Shown one piece after another: positions 1 to 10,013 of a DNA stretch of 10,013 nucleotides (position 1 is its first letter; every line of letters starts with the position of its first letter). A program made the position numbers and the translations under genes. Source of the DNA: a virus (Duplodnaviria > Heunggongvirae > Uroviricota > Caudoviricetes); the IMG/VR virus record IMGVR_UViG_2778261352_000004, positions 1-10,013 of that record. One strand, given 5' to 3'. The notes beneath the pieces were generated by a model that was not told where the DNA came from, did not search any database, and was given only the letters and a program-made list of their open reading frames with translations.

Positions 1-2334
1 TCAGGTTGTCGCAGGGTCGTCACATTTTGGCAGCCAGTCGCCGTAGCTTTCCTCTTTCAGCGTCAGGTTGGTCTGTATCCCCTGTTTGGTATGGCGCTTC
101 TCGTAATTCAGCCCGTATTCCTTCAGCATCACCGGCAGCCCCAGCCCGAACATTTTCAGACTGAGTACATTCCGGTAGCCGTTTGCCTCCATGTAGGCCA
201 GATAGGCGTGATAGAGGTATTTACGGTAATTACGCGGGATGATACTGGCGTTCCCCATATACATGCCGCTGGTCTGCGGCAGGGTTTCCAGATAGCCGAT
301 AAAATCAAACATCGGGTCGGCATCCCGTTTGATGTTCAGTGCCTCGTCTGAGTTCTGCTGGGACTGAAGCAGTGACCGGGCGAGCATCGGGTCGCTGAAC
401 TTCTGCATCAGGTGACGCACGATGACCGCCAGCTCGCGGGTGATTTTGTCCTTAAGCTGCGGGTCGCGCTCCTGCGGGGCTATCTGTTCCGGGAAGTGAA
501 TAATCACCCGCCGGCGTGACACGCCGCCGCTGCGGTCGGTGAAGCGCATCGGGTTATTGTTCACGGCCAGAATCACCGCCGGGATGTGCGTGGAGTACGC
601 ATCCCGGTATTTCGGGTCAACGGACACCGCATCGCCGCCGGTGATGGCCTTGAGTCCGGCTCCGTCGCCGCTCCATTTTTCCTGGTCCGGCAGGCGTATC
701 AGTGAGAAGCCAGTTAACGCGGCACGTTCACGCGGGGATTCCAGCGTCTCGATGGTGGCCGACGTGGCGTTATCCTCCCCGGCCAGCAGGGTGGCTATTT
801 CGGCCATGATACTTTTGCCGCTGCCGCCGGGACCGGTCACCTCCAGAAAGAGCTGCCAGTCGTAGCGGTTTGCCAGCACCATAAACAGTGCGGCCAGAAT
901 CACGTCGCGTTTTTCCGCACGGCCACCGGCGGCACGGTCAAGCCAGCGCCAGAACGCGGGGGCGTGGGTTTCCAGCGTTTCCCCTTCCACCGGCGGGGTG
1001 AAATCCACATCGCACAGGGTGCGCATCCAGTGTGACGGACTGTGCGGGTGGAACGTGCCGTTCTGCGTGTCGAGCACGCCGTTACGAAAGCCAATCAGGC
1101 GGCGGGAGGGGGCTTCCTGCTGCGGAATAATCAGCTTCAGGGTGTCCACCACGGAGGCCACTTTCCCGGAGGAGAACGGCGCGCGCAGACGCTGAAACAG
1201 CCCGGCCACATCCCGGGCAAAGTCCTGTGGTGGCAGTACCTTCCAGACACCATTTTCATAGCGGGACAGAAGCTGGCCGTTGGCATCGACCGCGAGCGCC
1301 TCGCCGTAATGCTCATAGATACGCATGGCCTTTTCGCTGGTACTCATGGCGGAAAACTCCGCTTCGCTCATGGTGTCGAACGGGCTTTCAGCCGGTGGCC
1401 GGATGGCATCATAAATGGCCTTACGGGTGGCTTCCCCGCCGTACTGCGTGAAGGCATCATTCCAGTCACCGAAGACCGGCGGCAGGGCAACAACACCTTC
1501 ACACGCATCTGCGGCTGCGGCGGCTTTTTTCTGGCCGTCACCGCTGAGGTCACGGTCAGCAGCAAGGACAATCTGACAGGCCGGATGCTTCTGCCGGGCA
1601 AGGCTGGCCAGAGAAAGGAGGTTCACGGAAGAAAGCGCCACCATCACCGTTTCACCGGTCAGGTGATGCACGGTAAGTGCGGTCGCGTATCCCTCCGCTA
1701 TCCACAGACGTTTTCCGGCCTGATTCTGTCCTTCAAGGGTGTGACAGGTGCCCCTGACCTGTCCGCCTTTCAGGGTGCGCTTACGGCCGTCAGCACTGAT
1801 TAACTGAAGGTTAACCAGTTCGCCGCTGTCGTCATACAGTGGCACCACAAGGTCACCGGCGCACCAGCTCACGCCACCGGCTCTGTGTGTGCCGGTCAGC
1901 ATCCGGCATTCCCGGCCGGGAAAGCCCTTGCGGGTCAGGTAGGCGTTACCGGTTCCGGGACGGGTTTTTGCCATCAGGGTTTGTGCCAGTGCGGCGGCGT
2001 TCTTCCGGGCAGCGTCTGTTTCAGCGCCGGCGGCGGCCGTCACTGCCGGGTCAGCCGGGGGCAGGCTGCCGGTCACGGCAGCCACCTTTGCGGCCGCGTC
2101 GGACGGGGAAACACCAAACACCTTTTCAACCAGTTTCAGGCCGTCACCGGCACCACACTGATTGCAGTACCAGGTGCCGCGCCCCTCCCTGTCATCAAAA
2201 CGGAAGCGGTCACTCCCGCCACAGACCGGACAGGGCTGATGACGGTTCTTAAGCACCTGAATCCCCAGCGCCGGGAGAATACGCGGCCAGTGGCCGAGCG
2301 CATGGCTGACGGTGGCGGTTACGTTCATTTTCAT
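1..2334 (-). CDS. alpha: P4 alpha-type primase-helicase (origin-binding replication protein), 777 aa, complete
   Basis: N-terminal zinc-binding motif CPVCGG...WYCNQCG (nt 2155-2232); TOPRIM-like acidic residues in LWIAEGYATA...LAADRDLSGDG; Walker A GPGGSGKS (nt 811-834). SD AAGGAG 9 nt upstream of ATG at 2334; stop TGA at 1-3. Length equals recalled P4 alpha. Confidence 0.95.
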   Translation of the reverse strand: MKMNVTATVSHALGHWPRILPALGIQVLKNRHQPCPVCGGSDRFRFDDREGRGTWYCNQCGAGDGLKLVEKVFGVSPSDAAAKVAAVTGSLPPADPAVTAAAGAETDAARKNAAALAQTLMAKTRPGTGNAYLTRKGFPGRECRMLTGTHRAGGVSWCAGDLVVPLYDDSGELVNLQLISADGRKRTLKGGQVRGTCHTLEGQNQAGKRLWIAEGYATALTVHHLTGETVMVALSSVNLLSLASLARQKHPACQIVLAADRDLSGDGQKKAAAAADACEGVVALPPVFGDWNDAFTQYGGEATRKAIYDAIRPPAESPFDTMSEAEFSAMSTSEKAMRIYEHYGEALAVDANGQLLSRYENGVWKVLPPQDFARDVAGLFQRLRAPFSSGKVASVVDTLKLIIPQQEAPSRRLIGFRNGVLDTQNGTFHPHSPSHWMRTLCDVDFTPPVEGETLETHAPAFWRWLDRAAGGRAEKRDVILAALFMVLANRYDWQLFLEVTGPGGSGKSIMAEIATLLAGEDNATSATIETLESPRERAALTGFSLIRLPDQEKWSGDGAGLKAITGGDAVSVDPKYRDAYSTHIPAVILAVNNNPMRFTDRSGGVSRRRVIIHFPEQIAPQERDPQLKDKITRELAVIVRHLMQKFSDPMLARSLLQSQQNSDEALNIKRDADPMFDFIGYLETLPQTSGMYMGNASIIPRNYRKYLYHAYLAYMEANGYRNVLSLKMFGLGLPVMLKEYGLNYEKRHTKQGIQTNLTLKEESYGDWLPKCDDPATT

Positions 2335-2348
2335 GGTGTTGTTCTCCT

Positions 2349-2669
2349 TCAGTGCAGTACCGGCGCTTTTATGTGACGGGCACAGAGTTCATCCATCACA
2401 ACCAGCCCGAGAAAGGACAGCGACGGCGCGGCCTTCAGGGGGCCGGATTCCATTAAATCTTCCAGCAGGGCACAGGCTATCTGACGCCCTTTTTCCTCAC
2501 CGTGCTGGCGCAGATAAAAGCCTTCCAGCTCAGCGGCGATGGCCGCCTCCAGTGACTCAAGGGTAAGATGCGGGTAGCGGTGCTGACGTTCGCACACGGT
2601 CAGCCAGGCACAGGCGACAGCGCGACGGTAAAGGGCAGCGCGTAAGACGGGCGGTAAGGGTGTTTTCAT
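2349..2669 (-). CDS. conserved hypothetical protein, P4 orf106-like (106 aa), immediately upstream of alpha
   Basis: Strong SD GGGAGG 7 nt upstream of ATG; stop TGA overlaps the alpha SD region; same strand and operon as alpha. Size and position match recalled P4 orf106; no function inferable. Confidence 0.7.
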
Positions 2670-2750
2670 TTGCTTTCCTCCCTGTGACAGATGACTGCAT
2701 TCCGTGCCGGTTGCATTAACTGATAAGGCATATCTGCTTCTCCTGAAGAC

Positions 2751-2776
2751 GTGCGTATCCCTGCGCGAATACGCAC
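2751..2776. promoter_or_regulatory. 8-bp perfect inverted repeat (GTGCGTAT-N10-ATACGCAC) between the orf151-like and orf106-like genes; possible attenuator, terminator or protein-binding site
   Basis: Read directly: gtgcgtat 2751-2758, loop 2759-2768, atacgcac 2769-2776. On the plus strand it is followed by ATTTAATTTTT; on the coding (minus) strand there is no U-tract after it. Confidence 0.3.
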
Positions 2777-2804
2777 ATTTAATTTTTCGGGTGTCGTTTT
2801 TTAA

Positions 2805-3260
2805 TTACAGATAATTGCGGTAACTGTTATCCGGGGTGATTTCCGGGTCAGGCTCCGTGCGGGGAATTTCCCGCCATTCCCGCGCCACCGGTGCCGCCCG
2901 GCTGACCGGAACAGGGTCCTGCGGGTAAATATCCAGATATTTCTCCCGCCATTTCTGTAATTCCGGGTCTCCGGCCATTTCTTTCAGTACCGCATGCCGG
3001 TTTACGGGGCTGCGTTTAAACAGGTCAGGACGGTCACAGGTAAATTCCCGCAGAAAACGCCCCAGCGGGATGTCTGTGGTGCGCCCGTCGGCGAGGATAC
3101 GCACAAGGATACTGAATTTACGGCGGTACGGATTCCAGACAATGTCCGGGCAGCGGTACGGCATTTCCCACGGAATACCGTCTTCCAGAATGCCGACCAC
3201 GGCCACATCGGGAAAACCGGCAGAACGGTAAATCTCACCGGGCTGGGGAAAATCAAACAT
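2805..3260 (-). CDS. conserved hypothetical protein, P4 orf151-like (151 aa)
   Basis: ATG at 3260-3258 overlaps the last codons of the upstream 95-aa gene (stop TGA 3255-3253); stop TAA at 2807-2805. Same strand as alpha operon; size matches recalled P4 orf151. Confidence 0.7.
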   Translation of the reverse strand: MFDFPQPGEIYRSAGFPDVAVVGILEDGIPWEMPYRCPDIVWNPYRRKFSILVRILADGRTTDIPLGRFLREFTCDRPDLFKRSPVNRHAVLKEMAGDPELQKWREKYLDIYPQDPVPVSRAAPVAREWREIPRTEPDPEITPDNSYRNYL

Positions 3261-3540
3261 GCGTCCTGTCTCCCCGGTCTTTCTGCTGGGCGAGAAAATC
3301 GCGGCACAGGCCTTTGGCTTTCAGCTCATTCAGCACAAAATCAATATCTTCATTCAGGTAGCTGAAAATATGCGGAATGTAGAGCTGATGCAGGCCGGAG
3401 AGTTCACGGTGAATCAAATCACCCCCAACAAACTGGGATACGGCGCTGGCGCGGTTGAGCTTATGGTAAGCCTCAATGCTGAGGTGTTCACGGGCGTCAT
3501 GACGCGCTGAGACGGTCTGAGGGGCTTTTTTATTACGCAC
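3253..3540 (-). CDS. 95-aa left-operon protein; candidate epsilon-like (helper derepression) gene by position and size only
   Basis: GTG start at 3540-3538 preceded by strong SD GGAGGTG with about 6-nt spacing; in-frame ATGs further upstream lack any SD. Start overlaps the stop of the kil-position ORF and stop overlaps the orf151-like start. No motif recognised. Confidence 0.45.
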
Positions 3541-3730
3541 GGGACACCTCCACCACCGGCAGACGGGCAGCAAGGGAGAGCACATAGTCACGGACAAGGG
3601 AACGGCGGGCGCTGCGTTCATCACCGGCGACGGTGCGAAGCATACAGATACGGGGATGACGGTCTGCGCGACGGACAGCCGCAAACACAAAGACAAATTC
3701 AGGGTGTGAGGGGGTAAGGGTCGTAGCCAT
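3533..3730 (-). CDS. 65-aa first gene of the left (immunity-controlled) operon; kil-position small protein
   Basis: ATG at 3730-3728 with strong SD GGAGG 7 nt upstream (3742-3738); stop TAA 3535-3533. The same frame stays open upstream to 4168, so a longer nested form cannot be excluded. Confidence 0.45.
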
Positions 3731-3802
3731 AAGGCAACCTCCGATAACAGCGTAAATGACGCTATCGCCGGAGTTCTCACGCTCGATGGCGATAGCCCAG
3801 AC

Positions 3803-3831
3803 GGGGGTGAGAATACCGGCGTTATCGGAAA
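3803..3831 (-). promoter_or_regulatory. antisense-type element in the immunity leader, complementary to two sense repeats (3995-4025 and 3741-3780)
   Basis: Minus-sense RNA here reads UUUCCGAUAACGCCGGUAUUCUCACCCCC. Its CCGAUAAC and UUCUCAC blocks are exact complements of GUUAUCGG and GUGAGAA, which occur in both flanking repeats; 13 of 15 contiguous nt pair with the copy abutting the kil-position SD. Confidence 0.3.
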
Positions 3832-3969
3832 CCGGCCAGCCCGGAGGCTGCCCCGCCTGAGCTACCATTGACTCAGTGGCATAACATGCGATTGCGAACA
3901 GGATCATACCTGCACGGCAAACCACACGCCACACCATAATCTGGTGCTCTGTGGCGTTGATTGCGACAC

Positions 3970-3991
3970 AAAAAAAGACGCATGGCGCGTC
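3970..3991 (-). terminator. Rho-independent terminator in the immunity leader (hairpin GACGC-GCCAU-GCGUC followed by U7)
   Basis: On the minus strand: 5-bp GC-rich stem (plus 3977-3981 / 3987-3991) immediately followed by seven T (plus-strand A-run 3970-3976). Lies about 130 nt downstream of the vis stop. Confidence 0.55.
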
Positions 3992-4047
3992 ATATGTCGC
4001 CGATAACATACTCGGGTTCTCACGCCCGGCTGCCGATTTTGCGGCAG
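3970..4047 (-). ncRNA. candidate small structured RNA (about 78 nt, promoter-to-terminator unit), possibly a P4 CI-like immunity RNA or leader
   Basis: Candidate sigma70 promoter just upstream (4055-4084), then a 7-bp hairpin GCUGCCG-N6-CGGCAGC (4029-4048), further short helices, and the intrinsic terminator at 3970-3991. Contains the sense repeat GUGAGAAC...GUUAUCGG. Confidence 0.3.
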
Positions 4048-4054
4048 CGGAAAA

Positions 4055-4084
4055 ACTATATCCGCAAATGCCGGAAAAAGGCAA
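4055..4084 (-). promoter_or_regulatory. candidate sigma70 promoter (P_LE-like): -35 TTGCCT, 18-bp spacer, -10 TATAGT, reading leftward
   Basis: Read directly on the minus strand: TTGCCT at plus 4084-4079, TATAGT at plus 4060-4055. Motif match only; no expression data. Confidence 0.3.
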
Positions 4085-4119
4085 GCCAGAAAAAGGGAGT
4101 TTTTGCAGAGCGGGCATCA

Positions 4120-4386
4120 TCATGCGTCGTACCCCCGTTTGCGTCCGGCAATGCGTCCGGCCATCCATGCGGTGACTTCAGAGTGCAGCCAGGCCACATT
4201 TTTACCGCCAAGACTCACCTGCGGCGGAAATTCCCCCTTACGGATGAGTTCATAGATGGTCGAGCGTGACAGGCCGCACAGGTGCATCACTTCCGGCAGA
4301 CGTAAAAAACGCTCCTGCGTGATGTCCGGCAGCGGCATCAGTGGCGTCACAGGGGCGGGAGACGGGGAAGAAAAAACAGCTTGCAT
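4120..4386 (-). CDS. vis: Vis/AlpA-family DNA-binding regulator (excisionase-like), 88 aa; P4 orf88/vis equivalent
   Basis: Protein carries the AlpA-family signature region FLRLPEV...[17 protein letters not shown]...[21 protein letters not shown] 5 nt upstream of ATG at 4386; stop TGA 4122-4120. Confidence 0.9.
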
Positions 4387-4488
4387 CGGGCTACCTCGTT
4401 AATGTCCATACAGCACCGGATAAGTCCGTCCGGCTTCGGGTAGCGCTTTATTTTGTGAATATTTTTGGCAGACGCAACAGGGGGGATT

Positions 4489-4506
4489 TGTTCCGGCAGC
4501 CTTACA
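4489..4506. promoter_or_regulatory. TGT-N12-ACA dyad upstream of vis; candidate Delta/Ogr activator site of the leftward late promoter (P_LL-like)
   Basis: Read directly: TGT 4489-4491, 12-nt spacer, ACA 4504-4506; a TGT-N11-ACA near-copy lies at 4512-4528. The consensus is recalled from P2/P4 late promoters. Confidence 0.4.
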
Positions 4507-4664
4507 ATGGCTGTGCATTTTTTGTACATCAGCGCCAGATAGCTTTAAAACGCTCTGGAAGGAGCTGGAAAAAATTATAGTGAAATACAAATTGTTTTTT
4601 CTTATTTATTTCAGTGAATTAATAAAAATAAAAAGTAATAAACAGCACAAAAAGCCCATCAACG

Positions 4665-4769
4665 GGTGAACAGTGGTGAACAGACGGTGAACAGTCATTA
4701 CTGCGATTGTTCACCCTTTAACTTATTGTATTACTTATCTTTTTTCTTATGGTGAACAGAGGTGAACAG
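4665..4769. repeat. origin-like iteron cluster: five direct GGTGAACAG copies plus one inverted TGTTCACC, inside an AT-rich tract (candidate ori, alpha-binding type I iterons)
   Basis: Copies at 4665-4673, 4675-4683, 4686-4694, 4751-4759 and 4761-4769, with inverted TGTTCACC at 4708-4715. Flanked by very AT-rich sequence from about 4575 to 4800. The octamer TGTTCACC is recalled as the P4 alpha-binding iteron. Confidence 0.7.
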
Positions 4770-4847
4770 TAAAATATAAAAAAACAAACAGTAAGCCGGT
4801 TTTTCCTGCGACCTTTTCCTGGCTTGCCGGTCTGAGGATGAGTCTCC

Positions 4848-4865
4848 TGTGTCAGGGCTGGCACA
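4848..4865. promoter_or_regulatory. TGT-N12-ACA dyad about 75-90 nt upstream of sid; candidate Delta/Ogr-activated P_sid promoter element
   Basis: Read directly: TGT 4848-4850, 12-nt spacer, ACA 4863-4865, placed where a -55-centred activator site for a start near 4910 would sit. Confidence 0.45.
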
Positions 4866-4937
4866 TCTGCAATGCGTCGTGTTGTTGTCCGGTGTACGTC
4901 ACAATTTTCTTAACCTGAAGTGACGAGGAGCCGGAAA

Positions 4938-5672
4938 ATGTCTGACAACACCATCCCTGAATATCTGCAACCCGCACTGGCACAACTGGAAAAGGCCAGA
5001 GTCGCTCATCTTGAGAACGCCCGCCTGATGGATGAGACCGTCACGGCCATTGAACGGGCAGAGCAGGAAAAAAATGCGCTGACGCAGGCCGACGGAAACG
5101 ATGATGACGACTGGCGCACGGCCTTTCGTGCAGCCGGTGGTGTCCTGAGCGACGAGCTGAAACAGCGCCACATTGAGCGCGTGGCACGCCGGGAGCTGGT
5201 ACAGGAATATGACAATCTGGCCGTGGTGCTGAATTTTGAACGTGAACGCCTGAAAGGGGCGTGTGACAGCACGGCCACCGCCTACCGGAAGGCACATCAT
5301 CATCTTCTGAGTCTGTATGCAGAGCATGAGCTGGAACACGCCCTGAATGAAACCTGTGAGGCGCTTGTCCGGGCAATGCATCTGAGCATCCTGGTACAGG
5401 AAAATCCGCTCGCCAACACCACCGGCCATCAGGGCTATGTCGCACCGGAAAAGGCTGTCATGCAGCAGGTGAAATCATCGCTGGAACAGAAAATTAAACA
5501 GATGCAAATCAGCCTCACCGGTGAGCCGGTTCTCCGGCTGACCGGACTGTCAGCGGCAACACTTCCGCACATGGATTATGAGGTGGCAGGCACACCGGCA
5601 CAGCGCAAGGTGTGGCAGGACAAAATAGACCAGCAGGGAGCAGTGCTTAAGGCCAGAGGACTGCTGTCATGA
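4938..5672 (+). CDS. sid: Sid, capsid size-determination (external scaffold) protein, 244 aa
   Basis: ATG at 4938 with SD GAGGAG 8 nt upstream; the GTG at 4920 in the ORF track has no SD. N-terminus MSDNTIPEYLQPALAQLEK; stop TGA overlaps the delta start in an ATGA junction (5669-5672). Length matches recalled P4 Sid. Confidence 0.92.
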   Translation: MSDNTIPEYLQPALAQLEKARVAHLENARLMDETVTAIERAEQEKNALTQADGNDDDDWRTAFRAAGGVLSDELKQRHIERVARRELVQEYDNLAVVLNFERERLKGACDSTATAYRKAHHHLLSLYAEHELEHALNETCEALVRAMHLSILVQENPLANTTGHQGYVAPEKAVMQQVKSSLEQKIKQMQISLTGEPVLRLTGLSAATLPHMDYEVAGTPAQRKVWQDKIDQQGAVLKARGLLS

Positions 5673-6169
5673 TTTACTGCCCGTCGTGTGGACATGTTGC
5701 TCACACCCGTCGCGCACATTTCATGGACGATGGCACCAAGATAATGATTGCACAGTGCCGGAATATTTATTGCTCTGCGACATTTGAAGCGAGTGAAAGC
5801 TTTTTCTCTGACTGTAAAGATTCAGGAATGGAATACATTTCAGGCAAACAGAGATACCGCGATTCACTGACGTCAGCCTCCGGCAGTATGAAACGCCCGA
5901 AAAGAATGCTTGTTACCGGATATTGTTGTCGGAGATGTAAAGGCCTTGCACTGTCAAGAACATCGCGACGTCTGTCTCAGGAAGTCACCGAGCGTTTTTA
6001 TGTGTGCACGGATCCGGGCTGTGGTCTGGTGTTTAAAACGCTTCAGACCATCACCCGCTTCATTGTCCGCCCGGTCACGCCGGACGAACTGGCAGAACGC
6101 CTGCATGAAAAACAGGAACTGCCGCCAGTACGGTTAAAAACACAATCATATTCGCTGCGTCTGGAATGA
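5669..6169 (+). CDS. delta: Delta, Ogr-family zinc-finger late-gene transcriptional activator (tandem Ogr-like domains), 166 aa
   Basis: Two Cys-cluster halves (CPSCG...CRNIYC and CCRRC...CTDPGC) typical of duplicated Ogr-like zinc fingers; translationally coupled to sid; length matches recalled P4 Delta. Confidence 0.92.
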   Translation: MIYCPSCGHVAHTRRAHFMDDGTKIMIAQCRNIYCSATFEASESFFSDCKDSGMEYISGKQRYRDSLTSASGSMKRPKRMLVTGYCCRRCKGLALSRTSRRLSQEVTERFYVCTDPGCGLVFKTLQTITRFIVRPVTPDELAERLHEKQELPPVRLKTQSYSLRLE

Positions 6170-6242
6170 GGGCTGCCGGTTAACACCGGCCGTCGCCGCA
6201 CACCGTATTTTTATTCTTCAGCATGATGAGAAAGAGATAACG

Positions 6243-6815
6243 ATGGAAAGCACAGCCTTACAGCAGGCCTTTGACACCTGTCAGAATAACAAAGCAGCAT
6301 GGCTGCAACGCAAAAATGAGCTGGCAGCGGCCGAACAGGAATATCTGCGGCTTCTGTCAGGAGAAGGCAGAAACGTCAGTCGCCTGGACGAATTACGCAA
6401 TATTATCGAAGTCAGAAAATGGCAGGTGAATCAGGCCGCCGGTCGTTATATTCGTTCGCATGAAGCCGTTCAGCACATCAGCATCCGCGACCGGCTGAAT
6501 GATTTTATGCAGCAGCACGGCACAGCACTGGCGGCGGCACTGGCACCGGAGCTGATGGGCTACAGTGAGCTGACGGCCATTGCCCGAAACTGTGCCATAC
6601 AGCGTGCCACAGATGCCCTGCGTGAAGCCCTTCTGTCCTGGCTTGCGAAGGGTGAAAAAATTAATTATTCCGTACAGGATAGCGACATTTTAACGGCCAT
6701 CGGATTCAGGCCTGACGCGGCTTCGGTGGATGACAGCCGTGAAAAATTCACTCCTGCGCAGAACATGATTTTTTCGCGTAAAAGTGCGCAACTGGCATCA
6801 CGTCAGTCTGTGTAA
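6243..6815 (+). CDS. psu: Psu, polarity suppression protein (Rho antagonist / capsid decoration), 190 aa
   Basis: Position after delta and about 165 bp before cos; length matches recalled P4 Psu; N-terminus MESTALQQAFDTCQNNKAAWLQRKNELAAAEQEY. Confidence 0.9.
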   Translation: MESTALQQAFDTCQNNKAAWLQRKNELAAAEQEYLRLLSGEGRNVSRLDELRNIIEVRKWQVNQAAGRYIRSHEAVQHISIRDRLNDFMQQHGTALAAALAPELMGYSELTAIARNCAIQRATDALREALLSWLAKGEKINYSVQDSDILTAIGFRPDAASVDDSREKFTPAQNMIFSRKSAQLASRQSV

Positions 6816-6845
6816 AATTCCCCGAAAATCCGCCCGTTTTTACTG

Positions 6846-6890
6846 AAAAAAGCCATGCATCGATAAGGTGCATGGCTTTGCATGCGTTTT
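6846..6890 (+). terminator. candidate intrinsic terminator of the sid-delta-psu operon (9-bp stem AGCCATGCA/TGCATGGCT, 9-nt loop, T-rich tail)
   Basis: Stem 6851-6859 / 6869-6877, followed by TTGCATGCGTTTT; an A-run precedes it, so it may act in both directions. Confidence 0.45.
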
Positions 6891-6979
6891 CCTGCCTCAT
6901 TTTCTGCAGACCGCGCCATTCCCGGCGCAGCCTGAGCGTGACTGTGCAACTGCATTAAAACCGCCCTGCAAAGCGGGCG

Positions 6980-6998
6980 GGCGAGGCGGGGAAAGCAC
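6980..6998. other. cos site: 19-nt P2/P4-type cohesive-end sequence GGCGAGGCGGGGAAAGCAC, uncleaved
   Basis: Exact 19-mer read at 6980-6998, preceded by inverted repeat CCGCCC-N8-GGGCGG (6961-6980). Matches the cohesive end as I recall it for P2/186/P4; spacing from the psu stop fits P4. Confidence 0.75.
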
Positions 6999-7102
6999 TG
7001 CGCGTTAGACTTAACTAAAGTGATTGATTCAGATGCTAAAAACGCGTAGAAAAAGGAATGCAACTACCCCTATCAGTGCTCCTCTTGAAGGATAAATAAA
7101 AA

Positions 7103-8788
7103 ATGAGCATTATTCACGTAAATCAAATTGGCAGTAAAGTTAAGGCATTATTTGCTGATAAAATTGATAACAGTGATCTCAATCATAAAGATAAAGAAAT
7201 ACAAACTAAAATATTGACTCGTTGTCTTTCTGCTTACGCTGTTTTTTGTATTGGAGATACCTCGATAGATGAGGCTGCGTCAGCAGTTGTTGATGGTGCC
7301 GATGATAATGGTATCGATGCAATTCATTATTCTCCTTCAAGTAAGAGGATGATTATTGTTCAATCTAAATGGAAAAAGGATGGAACAGGAGAACCTGATA
7401 ATGGTGATTTGAGGAAGTTTAAAGATGGTGTATTAGACCTCATTAATCTTGAGCTTGATAAATTTAATAACAAAGTAAATCTAAAAAAACAGATGATTGA
7501 AACAGCTTTGGGTGAGTTTGATACAAAATTTGATCTTGTTTTAATTCACACAGGTGCGAATACTCTAAGCAAACATAACCAACAAGTAATGGATTCAATT
7601 CTTAATGAATTAAACGATGCCGGTGATGGAACCAGTGAGGATGTTGTTAGTTTCCACCATCTGAATCAAGCGATAATTCATAGTGGTCTTGCCTCTGGTA
7701 TGGATGGGGAACCAATCGATTTGGAAATCGGTCTTTCACAATGGGGAAAAATTGAAGAGCCACATCAAGGTTTTTTCGGGATTGTAGCTGGTGAGGAGGT
7801 TGCAAATTGGTGGTTAAAAAAAGGGAAAAGACTATTTGCCAAAAATATTAGGCAAATGTTAGGTGCTACTGAAGTTAATGATGAGGTTAAGAGAACAATT
7901 GAGGAACAACCTGAGAATTTTTGGTATTACAATAATGGTATAACTATTGTTGCTGAATCTATAAAAAAATCGATGGTTGGTGGAAATAGTAGAGATATTG
8001 GTTCGTTTAAAGCGAGTAATATAAGCATTGTTAATGGTGCTCAGACTGTAAGCGTAATTGGTAAATATTCGCAAGAAGGAGGGGCAAATCTTGCTAAATT
8101 GCGTTTACCTATCCGATTGATTTCATTAGAAGGTGCGCCAGAAGACTTTGGTGCAAATGTGACAAAAACTAATAACCGTCAAAATAGAATCGAAAGCAGA
8201 GACTTTGTTTCCTTAGATGATGAGCAAATCCGGTTAAAAAGAGAACTATCCTTGGAGGGGATTGAGTATAATATAGTAAGGAGTGAGAATGTTAAGACAT
8301 CGGCTAGCATAATCGATTTATCTGAAGCGACCATTGCATTGGCTTGTGCGTCTACGCAGGTGGGTTTAGCAGTTCAAGCGAAAAGAGAAATAGGTCGATT
8401 CTATGACAATCTTAATAAAGCGCCATATAAAACAATTTTCAACCCGCAAACCAATGGTATTTATTTACGAAATACGGTATTTGCATTACGAAAAATAGAT
8501 GAAATAATTGGCGAAATGATTGCGAACATACCTAAAAAATCTGGTAAAGAGTATGGTGTTCTTGTTCATGGGAATAGGATGTTGGCATTTTTGGTTTTTA
8601 GAAAGTTGATGATACATAAAATCGCAAATAACTTTGATTTTGATATGTCTTCAATTGATTGGTATGAAACCACATCAGATATGCTTGAGAAATTGATGTC
8701 GGAAATTGAAGAGAATTATAAGGATAAGTTTCTTGCTACTTTATTTAAGAACGCAAGTATTTGTAAGGCTATATCCGAGAAAATATAA
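7103..8788 (+). CDS. hotspot cargo: 561-aa protein with N-terminal Mrr-type PD-(D/E)xK nuclease-like motif and AIPR-like (abortive infection) features; candidate single-gene anti-phage defence protein
   Basis: Single long ORF in a strongly AT-rich block flanked by GC-rich satellite DNA. N-terminal GADDNGIDAIHY...MIIVQSKW (D-G-I-D ... Q-x-K; Q87/K89 at 7361-7369). Also WYYNNGIT (7922-7945) and IVNGAQT (from 8027), which I recall as AIPR-type motifs. SD-like AAGGA upstream; stop TAA 8786-8788. Family assignment is from memory of motif patterns, not a search. Confidence 0.55.
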   Translation: MSIIHVNQIGSKVKALFADKIDNSDLNHKDKEIQTKILTRCLSAYAVFCIGDTSIDEAASAVVDGADDNGIDAIHYSPSSKRMIIVQSKWKKDGTGEPDNGDLRKFKDGVLDLINLELDKFNNKVNLKKQMIETALGEFDTKFDLVLIHTGANTLSKHNQQVMDSILNELNDAGDGTSEDVVSFHHLNQAIIHSGLASGMDGEPIDLEIGLSQWGKIEEPHQGFFGIVAGEEVANWWLKKGKRLFAKNIRQMLGATEVNDEVKRTIEEQPENFWYYNNGITIVAESIKKSMVGGNSRDIGSFKASNISIVNGAQTVSVIGKYSQEGGANLAKLRLPIRLISLEGAPEDFGANVTKTNNRQNRIESRDFVSLDDEQIRLKRELSLEGIEYNIVRSENVKTSASIIDLSEATIALACASTQVGLAVQAKREIGRFYDNLNKAPYKTIFNPQTNGIYLRNTVFALRKIDEIIGEMIANIPKKSGKEYGVLVHGNRMLAFLVFRKLMIHKIANNFDFDMSSIDWYETTSDMLEKLMSEIEENYKDKFLATLFKNASICKAISEKI

Positions 8789-8810
8789 TCTGGCACTCCG
8801 TTATATTAAG

Positions 8811-8832
8811 AAATGCCGCTTATGCGGCATTT
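8811..8832. terminator. bidirectional hairpin between convergent cargo and integrase genes (AAATGCCGC-TTAT-GCGGCATTT)
   Basis: 9-bp perfect stem with 4-nt loop, 8811-8832, between the cargo stop (8788) and the integrase stop (8841); A/T-rich flanks on both sides. Confidence 0.5.
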
Positions 8833-8840
8833 GTCTATTA

Positions 8841-10013
8841 TCAGAAAAATGAATAGATATAATTACTATACCATTGCATCATAGAGCGTCTTTTCTCTAA
8901 ATACTGAGCATGGTTATATGTTCCACGAATACTATTTTTATCAACATGTGCCAATTGCATTTCAATCCATGAGCTATCAAACCCTTGTTCGTGCAATATT
9001 GTCGACATGGTATGTCGAAAACCGTGGCCTGTAGCACGGCCTTTGTAGCCAAGTAACTCAATTACCTGTGAAACACTTTCTTTTGAGATCGGCTTGCTAC
9101 GATTGTTCCTTCCAATAAAAATGTATGGGTAATGTCCTGTAATAGGTTTGAGTTGTTTAAATAGGGTAATTACCTGTGTAGATAAGGGAACAATGTGTGG
9201 TCTACGCATTTTCATTCTTTCTGCTGGTATTTCCCATATACCCTTTTCCAGGTCTACTTCATTCCATGTGGCAAAGCGCATTTCCTGAGTTCTTATGCCA
9301 GTTAACATGACTATCTTTGTCGCATTTTTAGTGATGATGCTTCCGGTGTATGCTTCAAGATCTTGAATAAAATAAGGCAACTCTTCGGCAGATAAAAATG
9401 GGTGGTGTTTTTGTTTAGGAACGGTCAGAGCGATAGCTAAATCAGGTGCGGGGTTGTATTCAGCTCGGCCAGTTATGATTGCATAACGAAAGACCTCACC
9501 GCATCTTTGGCGCACTTTTCTGGTCTTCTCTAGTGCTCCTCGTTTCTCTATTCGTCGCAACACTTCAAGCAGTTCTAATGGTTTGATTTCACTGATAGGA
9601 CGTTTACCAATGAACGGGAAGACATCTTGCTCGAATGTCTTAATGATTTCTTCTCGATAGGCTACAGTCCAGCGGTCAGCTTTGTTGGTATGCCATTCTC
9701 GACATATTGCTTCGAAAGAATTTTCTATTGATAGCTTTTGAGCGAGTCTTAAAGCTTTGCGTTCCTCTACCGGGTCAATGCCATTAGCAACCTGCTTACG
9801 GGCGATATCACGCTTCTCACGTGCTTCTGCGAGGCTTACTAAATCGTAGCTGCCAAATGACATTAACCGCGCTTTCCCTGCAAACCGGAAACGGAAACGC
9901 CAGCCTTTCGAGCCATCGGGATTGATAAGCAATGACAGACCTTGTCCATCGTTCAATGTGTATGGTTTGTCTTGTGGTTTTGCGCGTTTGATCTGTATAT
10001 CGGTTAGAGCCAT
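8841..10013 (-). CDS. int: tyrosine site-specific integrase (P4-type, N-terminal arm-binding domain), 390 aa, complete
   Basis: ATG at the last three window bases (10013-10011); N-terminus MALTDIQIKRAKPQDKPYTLNDGQGLSL typical of P4-family integrases. Catalytic-type motifs LTGIRTQE, HGFRHT, LAHVD and RGTYNHAQY; stop TGA 8843-8841. Any SD or promoter lies outside the window. Confidence 0.9.
   Translation of the reverse strand: MALTDIQIKRAKPQDKPYTLNDGQGLSLLINPDGSKGWRFRFRFAGKARLMSFGSYDLVSLAEAREKRDIARKQVANGIDPVEERKALRLAQKLSIENSFEAICREWHTNKADRWTVAYREEIIKTFEQDVFPFIGKRPISEIKPLELLEVLRRIEKRGALEKTRKVRQRCGEVFRYAIITGRAEYNPAPDLAIALTVPKQKHHPFLSAEELPYFIQDLEAYTGSIITKNATKIVMLTGIRTQEMRFATWNEVDLEKGIWEIPAERMKMRRPHIVPLSTQVITLFKQLKPITGHYPYIFIGRNNRSKPISKESVSQVIELLGYKGRATGHGFRHTMSTILHEQGFDSSWIEMQLAHVDKNSIRGTYNHAQYLEKRRSMMQWYSNYIYSFF

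Follow-up and report, generated by a model that had tools for sequence, protein, structure and literature searches.

The window, by which we mean the whole stretch of 10,013 nucleotides that was analysed, carries the P4 core gene set in P4 order: an alpha primase-helicase, sid, delta, psu, an AlpA-like regulator and an integrase. Pfam matches were found for the alpha domains, Ogr_Delta, Psu, Phage_AlpA and the integrase. At 3785-4061 the Rfam models C4 (76 bits), isrK and c4-a1b1 each scored above the gathering score, which marks the CI/C4 antisense RNA immunity region. Window positions 1-6979 align with positions 4636-11624 of P4 (NC_001609) as a single collinear block from alpha to the cos end with 97.4% identity. 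The ORF lengths equal those of P4 (alpha 777, orf106 106, orf151 151, orf88 88, delta 166 and psu 190); sid is 250 from an upstream GTG here and 244 in P4. The initial annotation had described the backbone from alpha through psu and cos as co-linear with P4 and matching in gene length. The collinear block and the ORF lengths agree with this description, and P4 has the same C4/CI RNA immunity region. The final backbone gene ahead of the hotspot is psu (6243..6815, plus strand; Pfam Psu, 1.2e-88), which lies within the 97.4% P4-identical block. The slot between psu/cos and int is laid out as follows: psu ends at 6815, cos lies at 6980-6998, the cargo gene at 7103-8788, and the int stop at 8841.

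Two hairpins are found in this region and both beat shuffled controls in folding. The upstream one (6849..6879, plus strand) has a 13-bp stem and a 5-nt loop (-22 kcal/mol, z -3.8), and 0 of 200 shuffles folded as well. It is identical in P4 and in the related elements L003-L006. Since it lies upstream of cos, in sequence kept by P4 and all relatives examined, it is the psu terminator in the conserved backbone and not a cassette boundary. The downstream hairpin (8811..8832; 9-bp stem and 4-nt loop) was detected by terminator scan and folding on both strands (z -3.7); it folds at about -15 kcal/mol whichever strand is taken and sits between the convergent cargo and int genes. The cos cohesive-end sequence GGCGAGGCGGGGAAAGCAC occupies 6980..6998 (plus strand): the P4 record ends at window position 6979 and restarts with GGCGAGGCGGGGAAAGCAC, which is invariant across six aligned elements. 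P2-like phages match 60-66-nt stretches spanning cos (window ~6939-7010) at 89-95%. The last conserved bases, TGCGCG (6999..7004, plus strand), place the left recombination junction at 7004|7005. In the six-element alignment every column is conserved through 7004 and unrelated from 7005 on, and it is at 7005, six bases after the cohesive end, that similarity to P4 and all other P4-like elements stops. pFR77, a clone of a near-identical cassette made by Rousset et al. (2022, PMC9122126), differs from the window at 10 of the 311 nt to the left of 7004 and matches all 88 nt to the right. In all aligned elements the left junction falls at cos, irrespective of cargo. The cargo had initially been described as bounded by hairpin terminators at 6846-6890 and 8811-8832. 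Both hairpins are real and the second is indeed the cassette terminator; the first belongs to psu, and the true left recombination edge lies at cos + 6 bp.

The exchangeable cassette as a whole, with leader, ORF and terminator, spans 7005..8840 (plus strand) and has no similarity to P4 or L003-L006. Its GC content is 35% versus 56% for the backbone. In 300-bp windows the values were 0.356 +/- 0.028 for the cassette and 0.560 +/- 0.061 for the backbone, where only the ori region is equally low in GC. The 5' leader (7005..7102, plus strand) is AT-rich (GC 0.347) and contains a GAAGGA ribosome-binding site and a presumed promoter, which we infer only, because a promoter scan of the leader detected no strong sigma-70 consensus site. 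The product of the cargo gene (7103..8788, plus strand) is an AIPR/AbiU-family protein of 561 aa with the same sequence as WP_032211572. The gene has a GC of 0.350 and a GC3 of 0.265; the backbone genes have GC 0.49-0.61 and GC3 0.48-0.72. In the NC_001609 annotation gop (247-648), beta (651-1718) and cII (1746-2540, minus strand) are found between cos and int (2607-3926), as the initial annotation had stated. P4 positions 20-2600 (gop-beta-cII) have no match in the window, and past the cos end no DNA match to P4 was found. The proposal of one AT-rich gene in place of gop-beta-cII was borne out: a 1.84-kb cassette with a single AIPR gene stands where P4 has three genes (about 2.6 kb).

The integrase (minus strand; Pfam domains Arm-DNA-bind_3, Phage_int_M and Phage_integrase) is 390 aa long and 37% identical to P4 Int (439 aa, annotated as 440). 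That this integrase is not of the P4 type was a point missed in the initial annotation. Its composition had been called intermediate, and the measured GC of 0.421, which goes up from 0.382 near the cargo to 0.456 near att, is in line with this. The cargo-proximal 3' part of the gene (8841..9390, minus strand, GC 0.382) is divergent and cassette-linked, with 72-89% identity to other selC-type integrases. The att-proximal 5' part (9391..10013, minus strand, GC 0.456) is common to other selC-resident satellites and is 96-100% identical to the L003 integrase; the identity over the whole segment is 98.2% to L003 and 95.5% to L004. With an integrase that is non-P4, selC-targeting and mosaic, the right cassette edge is graded inside int, and the integrase/att arm also differs from that of P4. 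Alignment to P4-like relatives thus gave a sharp left junction and a graded right edge. The attachment site of P4 is leuX; the one used here is selC (tRNA-Sec). A tRNA gene beyond position 10013 was found in an identical genomic copy, in which tRNA-Sec lies 163 bp past the window end and an att repeat also flanks the element. Exact att repeats of at least 14 nt were not found, and a degenerate att copy was detected once one mismatch was allowed. The element is ~10.7 kb in length and resides at selC, which encodes the selenocysteine tRNA. The whole locus is very probably a P4-type phage satellite of E. coli with the known cos-adjacent variable defence hotspot, holding an AIPR/AbiU cassette.

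Of 5426 complete E. coli genomes, 20 contain the cassette, 2250 the cos flank and 958 at least 80% of the backbone. The copy in NZ_CP013662 has the same cassette DNA (100% identity). Strain D1 and E1167 (pFR77) carry it with 99.8-100% identity on backbones that differ by 1-5%. The elements L003-L006 carry a dCTP deaminase, SIR2, PARIS or a helicase pair at the same position, and their backbone segments are mostly 95-99.5% identical, with the exception of L004 sid-psu (93.1% over 47% coverage). Backbones 98.8-99.2% identical to that of the window hold other cargo, and segment identities are discordant between the backbone and the cassette plus int arm. Near-identical backbones with PARIS, a helicase pair, a dCTP deaminase or SIR2 in the slot support cassette exchange. 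The modular exchange expected from the start is further upheld by the rarity of the cassette, by its presence on different backbones and by the different cargos in one slot.

In the explanation that we prefer, the self-contained cassette 7005-8840, with one ORF and its own leader and terminator, would stand in for gop-beta-cII of P4 and would have been gained through recombination between related satellites. The left breakpoint would always lie at cos + 6 bp and the right breakpoints would be scattered within the integrase gene; the cargo would thereby take the 3' part of int along, and selC-type elements would keep the 5' part in common. Among complete E. coli genomes the int allele (at least 99% identity) was seen only alongside the AIPR cargo; as the cassette is always linked to this one allele, it is solely the mosaic pattern of int that suggests exchange of the cargo by itself. 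It is possible, if somewhat doubtful, that the exchanged unit was the whole right arm with cargo, integrase and att specificity. There would then have been a single recombination at cos between two satellite lineages, after which the AIPR gene was simply passed on with its selC integrase. Consistent with this, 20/20 complete genomes pair the cassette with the same int allele (at least 99%) at selC, the cassette and int of D1 are both 99.8% identical on a 95-99% identical backbone, and the nearest backbones differ in cargo and integrase jointly. However, compared with selC elements that hold dCTP deaminase or SIR2, the 5' third of int is 96-100% identical and the 3' part only 72-89%, a contrast that shows recombination inside int, parting the cargo from the att-side portion. 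In Morganella, Rahnella and Aeromonas, moreover, the cargo gene is found in the absence of this integrase. Exchange of the whole arm is a refinement of cassette exchange and not a contradiction of it.

Other origins of the cargo fit the data poorly. The chance that it is a conserved core gene of the satellite lineage whose composition merely drifted, the reading that the initial annotation had set against its own, is close to nil. Nothing except the constant presence in the 20 carriers speaks for it, and it was ruled out by the counts (20 genomes with the cargo versus 958 with at least 80% of the backbone), by the GC3 of 0.265 versus 0.48-0.72 in the backbone, and by other cargo on 98.8-99.2% identical backbones. 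Insertion by a transposon, an insertion sequence or an integron-like site-specific mechanism is highly improbable. In Rahnella and Aeromonas some of the loci with the homologue also have an rve-family transposase nearby, but the cassette here has no flanking direct repeats or terminal inverted repeats and the window no transposase ORF, and a transposon- or IS-borne cargo was rejected on these grounds. Also against such insertion, the left junction is at cos in every element whatever the cargo, and a 2026 survey reports that transposable elements are almost absent from these hotspots (PMC13586616).

The P4 hotspot was defined by Rousset et al. (2022, Cell Host Microbe, PMC9122126), whose Table S1A lists NZ_CP013662 / AIPR / WP_032211572 in it. 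The position (after cos, before int), the sharp switch from conserved to variable at the cos-proximal sequence and the kinds of alternative occupants (PARIS, helicase pairs, SIR2, deaminase) are the same here, with no essential difference. The hotspot, its AIPR occupants and the exact protein were already known, and the locus is an ordinary, previously described case; since the gene was also screened without validation, it carries little weight as a discovery. What is added is the exchange unit at base resolution, with a left edge at cos+6 and a right edge graded in a mosaic integrase, and the assignment of the terminator to the cassette, with which it moves, and of the hairpin upstream of cos to the backbone.

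The cargo protein matches Pfam AIPR with 114.1 bits (gathering cutoff 25) over residues 245-395, corresponding to model positions 1-154 of 308, and the same family is matched by 35/35 aligned homologues. PADLOC AbiU (PDLC02357, E 1.2e-33) aligns residues 51-559 to model positions 37-532 of 537, and phrog_1841 is matched at 2.9e-116. There are 3227 homologues, and the best 120 of the 3227 are almost all about 561-563 aa long. D72, Q87-S88-K89, VNGAQT and NNRQNR are invariant in the homologues. In the AlphaFold2 model (mean pLDDT 81, pTM 0.42) D72 precedes strand 73-77 and Q87-S88-K89 lies on strand 82-89, with Q in place of D/E before K. Q at this motif position occurs in some Mrr-type enzymes. 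The predicted N-terminus has a restriction-endonuclease-like (PD-(D/E)xK superfamily) fold. For the central core alone, structure ranking put ParB-N, PadC, BrxU, KorB, DUF262 proteins, SspE and sulfiredoxin at the top. Foldseek with the full model against PDB gave nothing with E <0.1, likely because the model is multidomain (pTM 0.42), and PDB sequence searches with the protein and with a 35-sequence profile detected no relative. A permissive Pfam scan of the 35 homologues found no ParBc, DUF262 or DndB and gave only marginal matches to Mrr_cat, DUF234 and BamHI (Mrr_cat in 3 of 35, best E 0.039). The cargo is predicted to join a FokI-like PD-(D/E)xK nuclease domain to a ParB-like core. The nuclease prediction agrees with the published analysis of lactococcal AbiU, whose AlphaFold model resembles FokI and was aligned to 1FOK (PMC13064643); AbiU-1 was assigned to the PD-(D/E)XK superfamily (PMC13099982). 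An older paper described the AIPR N-terminus as a HEPN domain (PMC3506569), which conflicts with the fold result here. Our results add this structural hypothesis for AIPR/AbiU proteins; they could point mutagenesis to D72, K89 and N311-T315 and guide recombination work likewise.

By HMM the cargo shows near-full-length homology to Lactococcus lactis AbiU (AbiUi/AbiU1) and Pfam PF10592, and it is likewise a single-gene system. Unlike lactococcal AbiU, the cargo rides a Gram-negative phage satellite and has no AbiUii/HEPN neighbour. The lactococcal gene is reportedly located on a plasmid, as Dai et al. are said to have described in 2001. Compared with GmrSD/BrxU and SspE (DUF262/ParB-like domain plus nuclease), the domain order is reversed in the cargo, with the nuclease first. 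The predicted cargo nuclease is of the PD-(D/E)xK type and the arginine of the DGQQR/DGQHR-type motif is missing; GmrSD-type enzymes carry an HNH/DUF1524 nuclease domain. The likeness to these enzymes is one of architecture and not of family membership. An AIPR core is also common to the cargo and MzaE of the MZA system (residues 227-378; PADLOC MzaE 4.7e-15, NCBIfam MzaE 3.2e-15). Identity with MzaE/MZA was rejected: the score was 55.7 bits against a curated cutoff of 1050, the core alone aligned, and there are no adjacent mza genes.

The cargo probably serves as an anti-phage effector. Its predicted N-terminal PD-(D/E)xK nuclease (D72 ... Q87-S-K89) would cut nucleic acid, and a putative central ParB/sulfiredoxin-like core, with the VNGAQT and NNRQNR motifs, and the C-terminal helical domain would control the nuclease. 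The analysis establishes the anatomy of the locus, its junctions, the distribution in the population, the protein family and the predicted folds; we infer that the gene would have its own promoter, and its product a nuclease activity, a trigger and a defence phenotype in E. coli. Rousset et al. (2022, PMC9122126) obtained pFR77 from E. coli E1167, a construct that agrees with the window in its leader and in residues 1-399 of the protein, and challenged it with eight coliphages; they list it with the 'additional tested systems', outside the validated set. For lactococcal AbiU a delay of phage transcription is reported, and its effect is just 10- to 100-fold (PMC13064643). We consider it unlikely that the cargo lacks an anti-phage effector function in E. 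coli and is instead baggage without activity, a selfish gene of the addiction type, or a factor directed at helper P2 or competing satellites and not at unrelated phages. The position of pFR77 outside the set validated against eight coliphages would fit such a role, as would the lack of a partner gene in the window; homologues in the cos-adjacent slot of P2-like prophages are compatible with a part in helper-satellite conflict. On the other hand, the ORF is intact and 99.6-100% conserved in 20/20 carriers, one of which is a degraded satellite that lost sid-psu and kept the cargo. The protein belongs to a large family whose catalytic-type motifs are strongly conserved, it is homologous to the experimentally active lactococcal AbiU, and a panel of eight phages is small.

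Close homologues of the cargo occupy the equivalent cos-adjacent slot of P2-like prophages, and AbiU has been reported in both P4 and P2 (PMC13586616). The locus adds an example of one cassette type common to the P4 and P2 cos-adjacent hotspots. It may be speculated that hotspot turnover starts at the terminase-cut cos ends, the sole sequence shared by P2 and P4, and occasionally moves cargo between helper and satellite; we rate this as decidedly unlikely. The boundary at exactly cos+6 and the same cassette in the satellite and in a P2-like Rahnella prophage would fit turnover initiated at cos ends. The 2026 survey describes helper-satellite cargo transfer as almost absent and calls this absence puzzling (PMC13586616). 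A cos-like sequence (up to 3 mismatches) was not found in the Morganella, Rahnella and Aeromonas loci. The Morganella copy aligns across 6950-8839, and similarity stops at 8839. The Rahnella P2-like prophage holds the leader, ORF and terminator hairpin of the cassette, with 88% amino-acid and 78.5% nucleotide identity and the same hairpin core. The last 65 nt of the leader (7038-7102) accompany the gene into this prophage, and the terminator core ATGCCGCTTATGCGGCAT is retained after the homologous gene.

The sequence in the window belongs to a phage satellite of the P4 type. Positions 1-6979 align with P4 (NC_001609) 4636-11624 in a single block at 97.4% identity, which agrees with the backbone collinearity claimed in the initial annotation. 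ORFs of P4 length are found for alpha (777 aa), orf106, orf151, an AlpA-like protein (88 aa), delta (166 aa), and psu (190 aa). Only sid differs, at 250 aa from a GTG start further upstream vs 244 aa in P4. Rfam places the RNA immunity system of P4 (C4 antisense RNA, isrK, and the c4-a1b1 target, all above the gathering score) at 3785-4061 on the minus strand. The 19-nt cos cohesive end (GGCGAGGCGGGGAAAGCAC) is found at 6980-6998, and the P4 record terminates at the right cos end. Chromosomes of E. coli A17, TUM1887, and 08-00022 carry elements identical or near-identical to the window. Searching past 10013 for the tRNA/att site, as had been proposed, we found tRNA-Sec (selC) 163 bp from the integrase start in strain 08-00022, and a degenerate second copy of the tRNA-Sec 3′ end (TTTGGCGGAAGATCACAGGAGTCGAA) about 500 bp past alpha. 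The element is therefore approximately 10.7 kb, and the window falls short of its two ends only. The 08-00022 copy (L002 10124-10857 vs window 4920-5672) is 1 base shorter and its sid is annotated as frameshifted; the window sid is intact. Immediately beyond the distal att copy, a rhuM pseudogene fragment was detected in all four selC-resident loci with the distal flank retrieved (08-00022, L002 4450-4611; an E. coli satellite with other cargo, L003 2033-2194; E. coli KSC64, L013 5264-5425; and a further locus, L014 1440-1601). This suggests a remnant of an earlier island at selC.

In the P4 record the cos-int interval is occupied by gop, beta, and cII, as stated in the initial annotation. The window slot carries a single AT-rich gene (ORF 7103-8788) with GC 0.350 and GC3 0.265, vs GC 0.49-0.61 and GC3 0.48-0.72 for the backbone genes. 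In 300-bp windows the mean GC is 0.356 for the cassette (7005-8840) and 0.560 for the backbone. The backbone is as AT-rich as the cassette in the ori region only (4501-4800, GC 0.333); by offset, this stretch is within the annotated P4 replication origin (P4 9086-9809, window 4451-5174). The integrase gene is indeed intermediate (GC 0.421). All of the elements first described are present, and the observation is confirmed; the interpretation is supported after correction of the boundaries and the integrase.

The left edge of the cassette is sharp. In a cos-region alignment of six elements (the window, P4, and four E. coli satellites with other cargo), the cohesive end plus TGCGCG are conserved up to 7004, and no relatedness is seen from 7005. 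An E. coli E1167 fragment (Rousset et al., 2022) differs from the window at 10 of 311 nt to the left of 7004 and matches it at all 88 nt to the right, so that the junction is the same (7004/7005). The cargo had been described as bounded by two hairpin terminators. Both hairpins (6849-6879 and 8811-8832) are far more stable than shuffled sequence (z about -3.7 to -3.8), and the second one belongs to the cassette: it is located between the stops of the convergent cargo and int genes and is assigned there because a P2-like prophage of Rahnella keeps its core behind the homologous gene. The first was rejected as a cassette boundary; it lies to the left of 7004 within the stretch conserved across the six elements and is the psu terminator. 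No direct or inverted repeats flanking the cassette were found in the window.

The right edge is graded. Similarity to other selC-resident satellites begins at ~8850, just within the int 3′ end. The cargo-proximal 3′ part of int (~8850 to ~9390) is 72-89% identical to other selC-type integrases, and the 5′ part (~9400-10013) is 96-100% identical to L003 and 86-100% to L004, both satellites with other cargo. Given this step in identity, the integrase is mosaic and the boundary lies inside int. The alignment pattern suggests crossovers within int, by which the 3′ part would move with the cargo. The identity drop parallels a fall in GC from 0.456 on the att side to 0.382 on the cargo side. The integrase/att arm, too, is unlike that of P4, with 37% identity to P4 Int and the element residing at selC. 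Roughly 500 selC-type integrase loci were retrieved. The int allele at 99% identity or more was found exclusively alongside the cargo, in 20 full-length records and one deleted variant; every complete E. coli genome with the cargo has one and the same int allele. In NCTC11023 (NZ_LS483297; matches H36 and H100), window 6887-7267 is joined to 9768-10013, and the product carries the annotation "Arm DNA-binding domain protein". This appears to be a deletion variant in which the beginning of the cargo region is fused to the int 5′ end.

Cassette exchange, as proposed initially, is supported as the origin of the slot difference. Of 5426 complete E. coli genomes, 20 have the cassette, 2250 the cos flank, and 958 at least 80% of the backbone. 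Other selC-resident elements carry an anti-phage dCTP deaminase or a SIR2 protein in the slot. Strain D1 is 99.8% identical to the window across the cassette and int and merely 95.2-98.9% across the backbone. The cargo is therefore not a conserved core gene of this lineage; that alternative, which also assumes backbone-like composition, was rejected on the 20 carriers vs 958 backbones and on GC3. Three genomes (KSC64, L013 6010-12136; H34; H35) have a degraded satellite at selC in which the orf151-psu region is lost and alpha, orf106, the integrase, and an intact AIPR gene remain.

The hotspot has already been published. Rousset et al. (2022; PMC9122126) defined it in P4-like satellites as the psu/cos-int interval, showed an abrupt change from conserved to variable sequence beside cos, and count AIPR among its thirty commonest occupants. 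The entry NZ_CP013662/AIPR/WP_032211572 in their Table S1A is the protein encoded by the window cargo. Their clone pFR77 holds a near-identical cassette of strain E1167 and is placed in Table S2B ("additional tested systems"), outside the validated set (Rousset et al., 2022; PMC9122126); over the first 399 residues and the leader it is identical to the window cassette. A 2026 survey (PMC13586616) reports AbiU in P4 and P2 elements alike and rapid swapping of hotspot cargo without transposons. The additions made here are small: the exchange unit is described to the base, the integrase is recognized as mosaic, a structural hypothesis is offered for the AIPR protein, and a P2-like prophage is found to have a homologous cassette at its cos-adjacent hotspot.

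The cargo protein (561 aa) matches Pfam AIPR (114 bits, cutoff 25), PADLOC AbiU near full length (E 1.2e-33), and phrog_1841 (E 2.9e-116). MzaE identity was rejected; the match is restricted to the shared core and far under the curated cutoff. There are 3227 homologs at E <= 1e-5, and almost all of the best 120 are ~561-563 aa in length. They range over Enterobacterales, Aeromonas, Vibrio, Gilliamella, and beyond, with further relatives in Aggregatibacter phage S1249, P2-like prophages, and small plasmids. D64-G-x-x-D68-x-G-x-D72 ... Q87-S-K89 is invariant near the N-terminus, and FWYxNNGIT, VNGAQT, and NNRQNR-x3-RD are conserved centrally. As a working model, we infer a putative nuclease effector that would be controlled by a ParB-like domain. 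The experimental data all come from lactococcal AbiU, which modestly lowered plaquing and delayed phage transcription (PMC13064643).

Two Rahnella loci (L009 9001-10689 and L010 7879-9567) carry a copy with 88% aa and 78.5% nt identity to the cargo, located in a P2-like prophage with gpA on one side and the portal gene on the other, at the P2 cos-adjacent hotspot. Compared with window 7038-8832, 65 nt of leader and the terminator hairpin core are retained. Only one closely related (>85%) defense gene common to P4 and P2 has been reported (PMC13586616); the Rahnella cassette may be that gene or a second such case. A Morganella morganii copy (L007 and L008, 8844-10737) is 94% identical, with DNA similarity extending from window 6950 to 8839. 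Since the similarity starts within the cos-proximal backbone, the island looks like a remnant of a P4-like element. Its neighbors are a type I restriction-modification system, RhuM, and a 164-aa Pox_D5 fragment.
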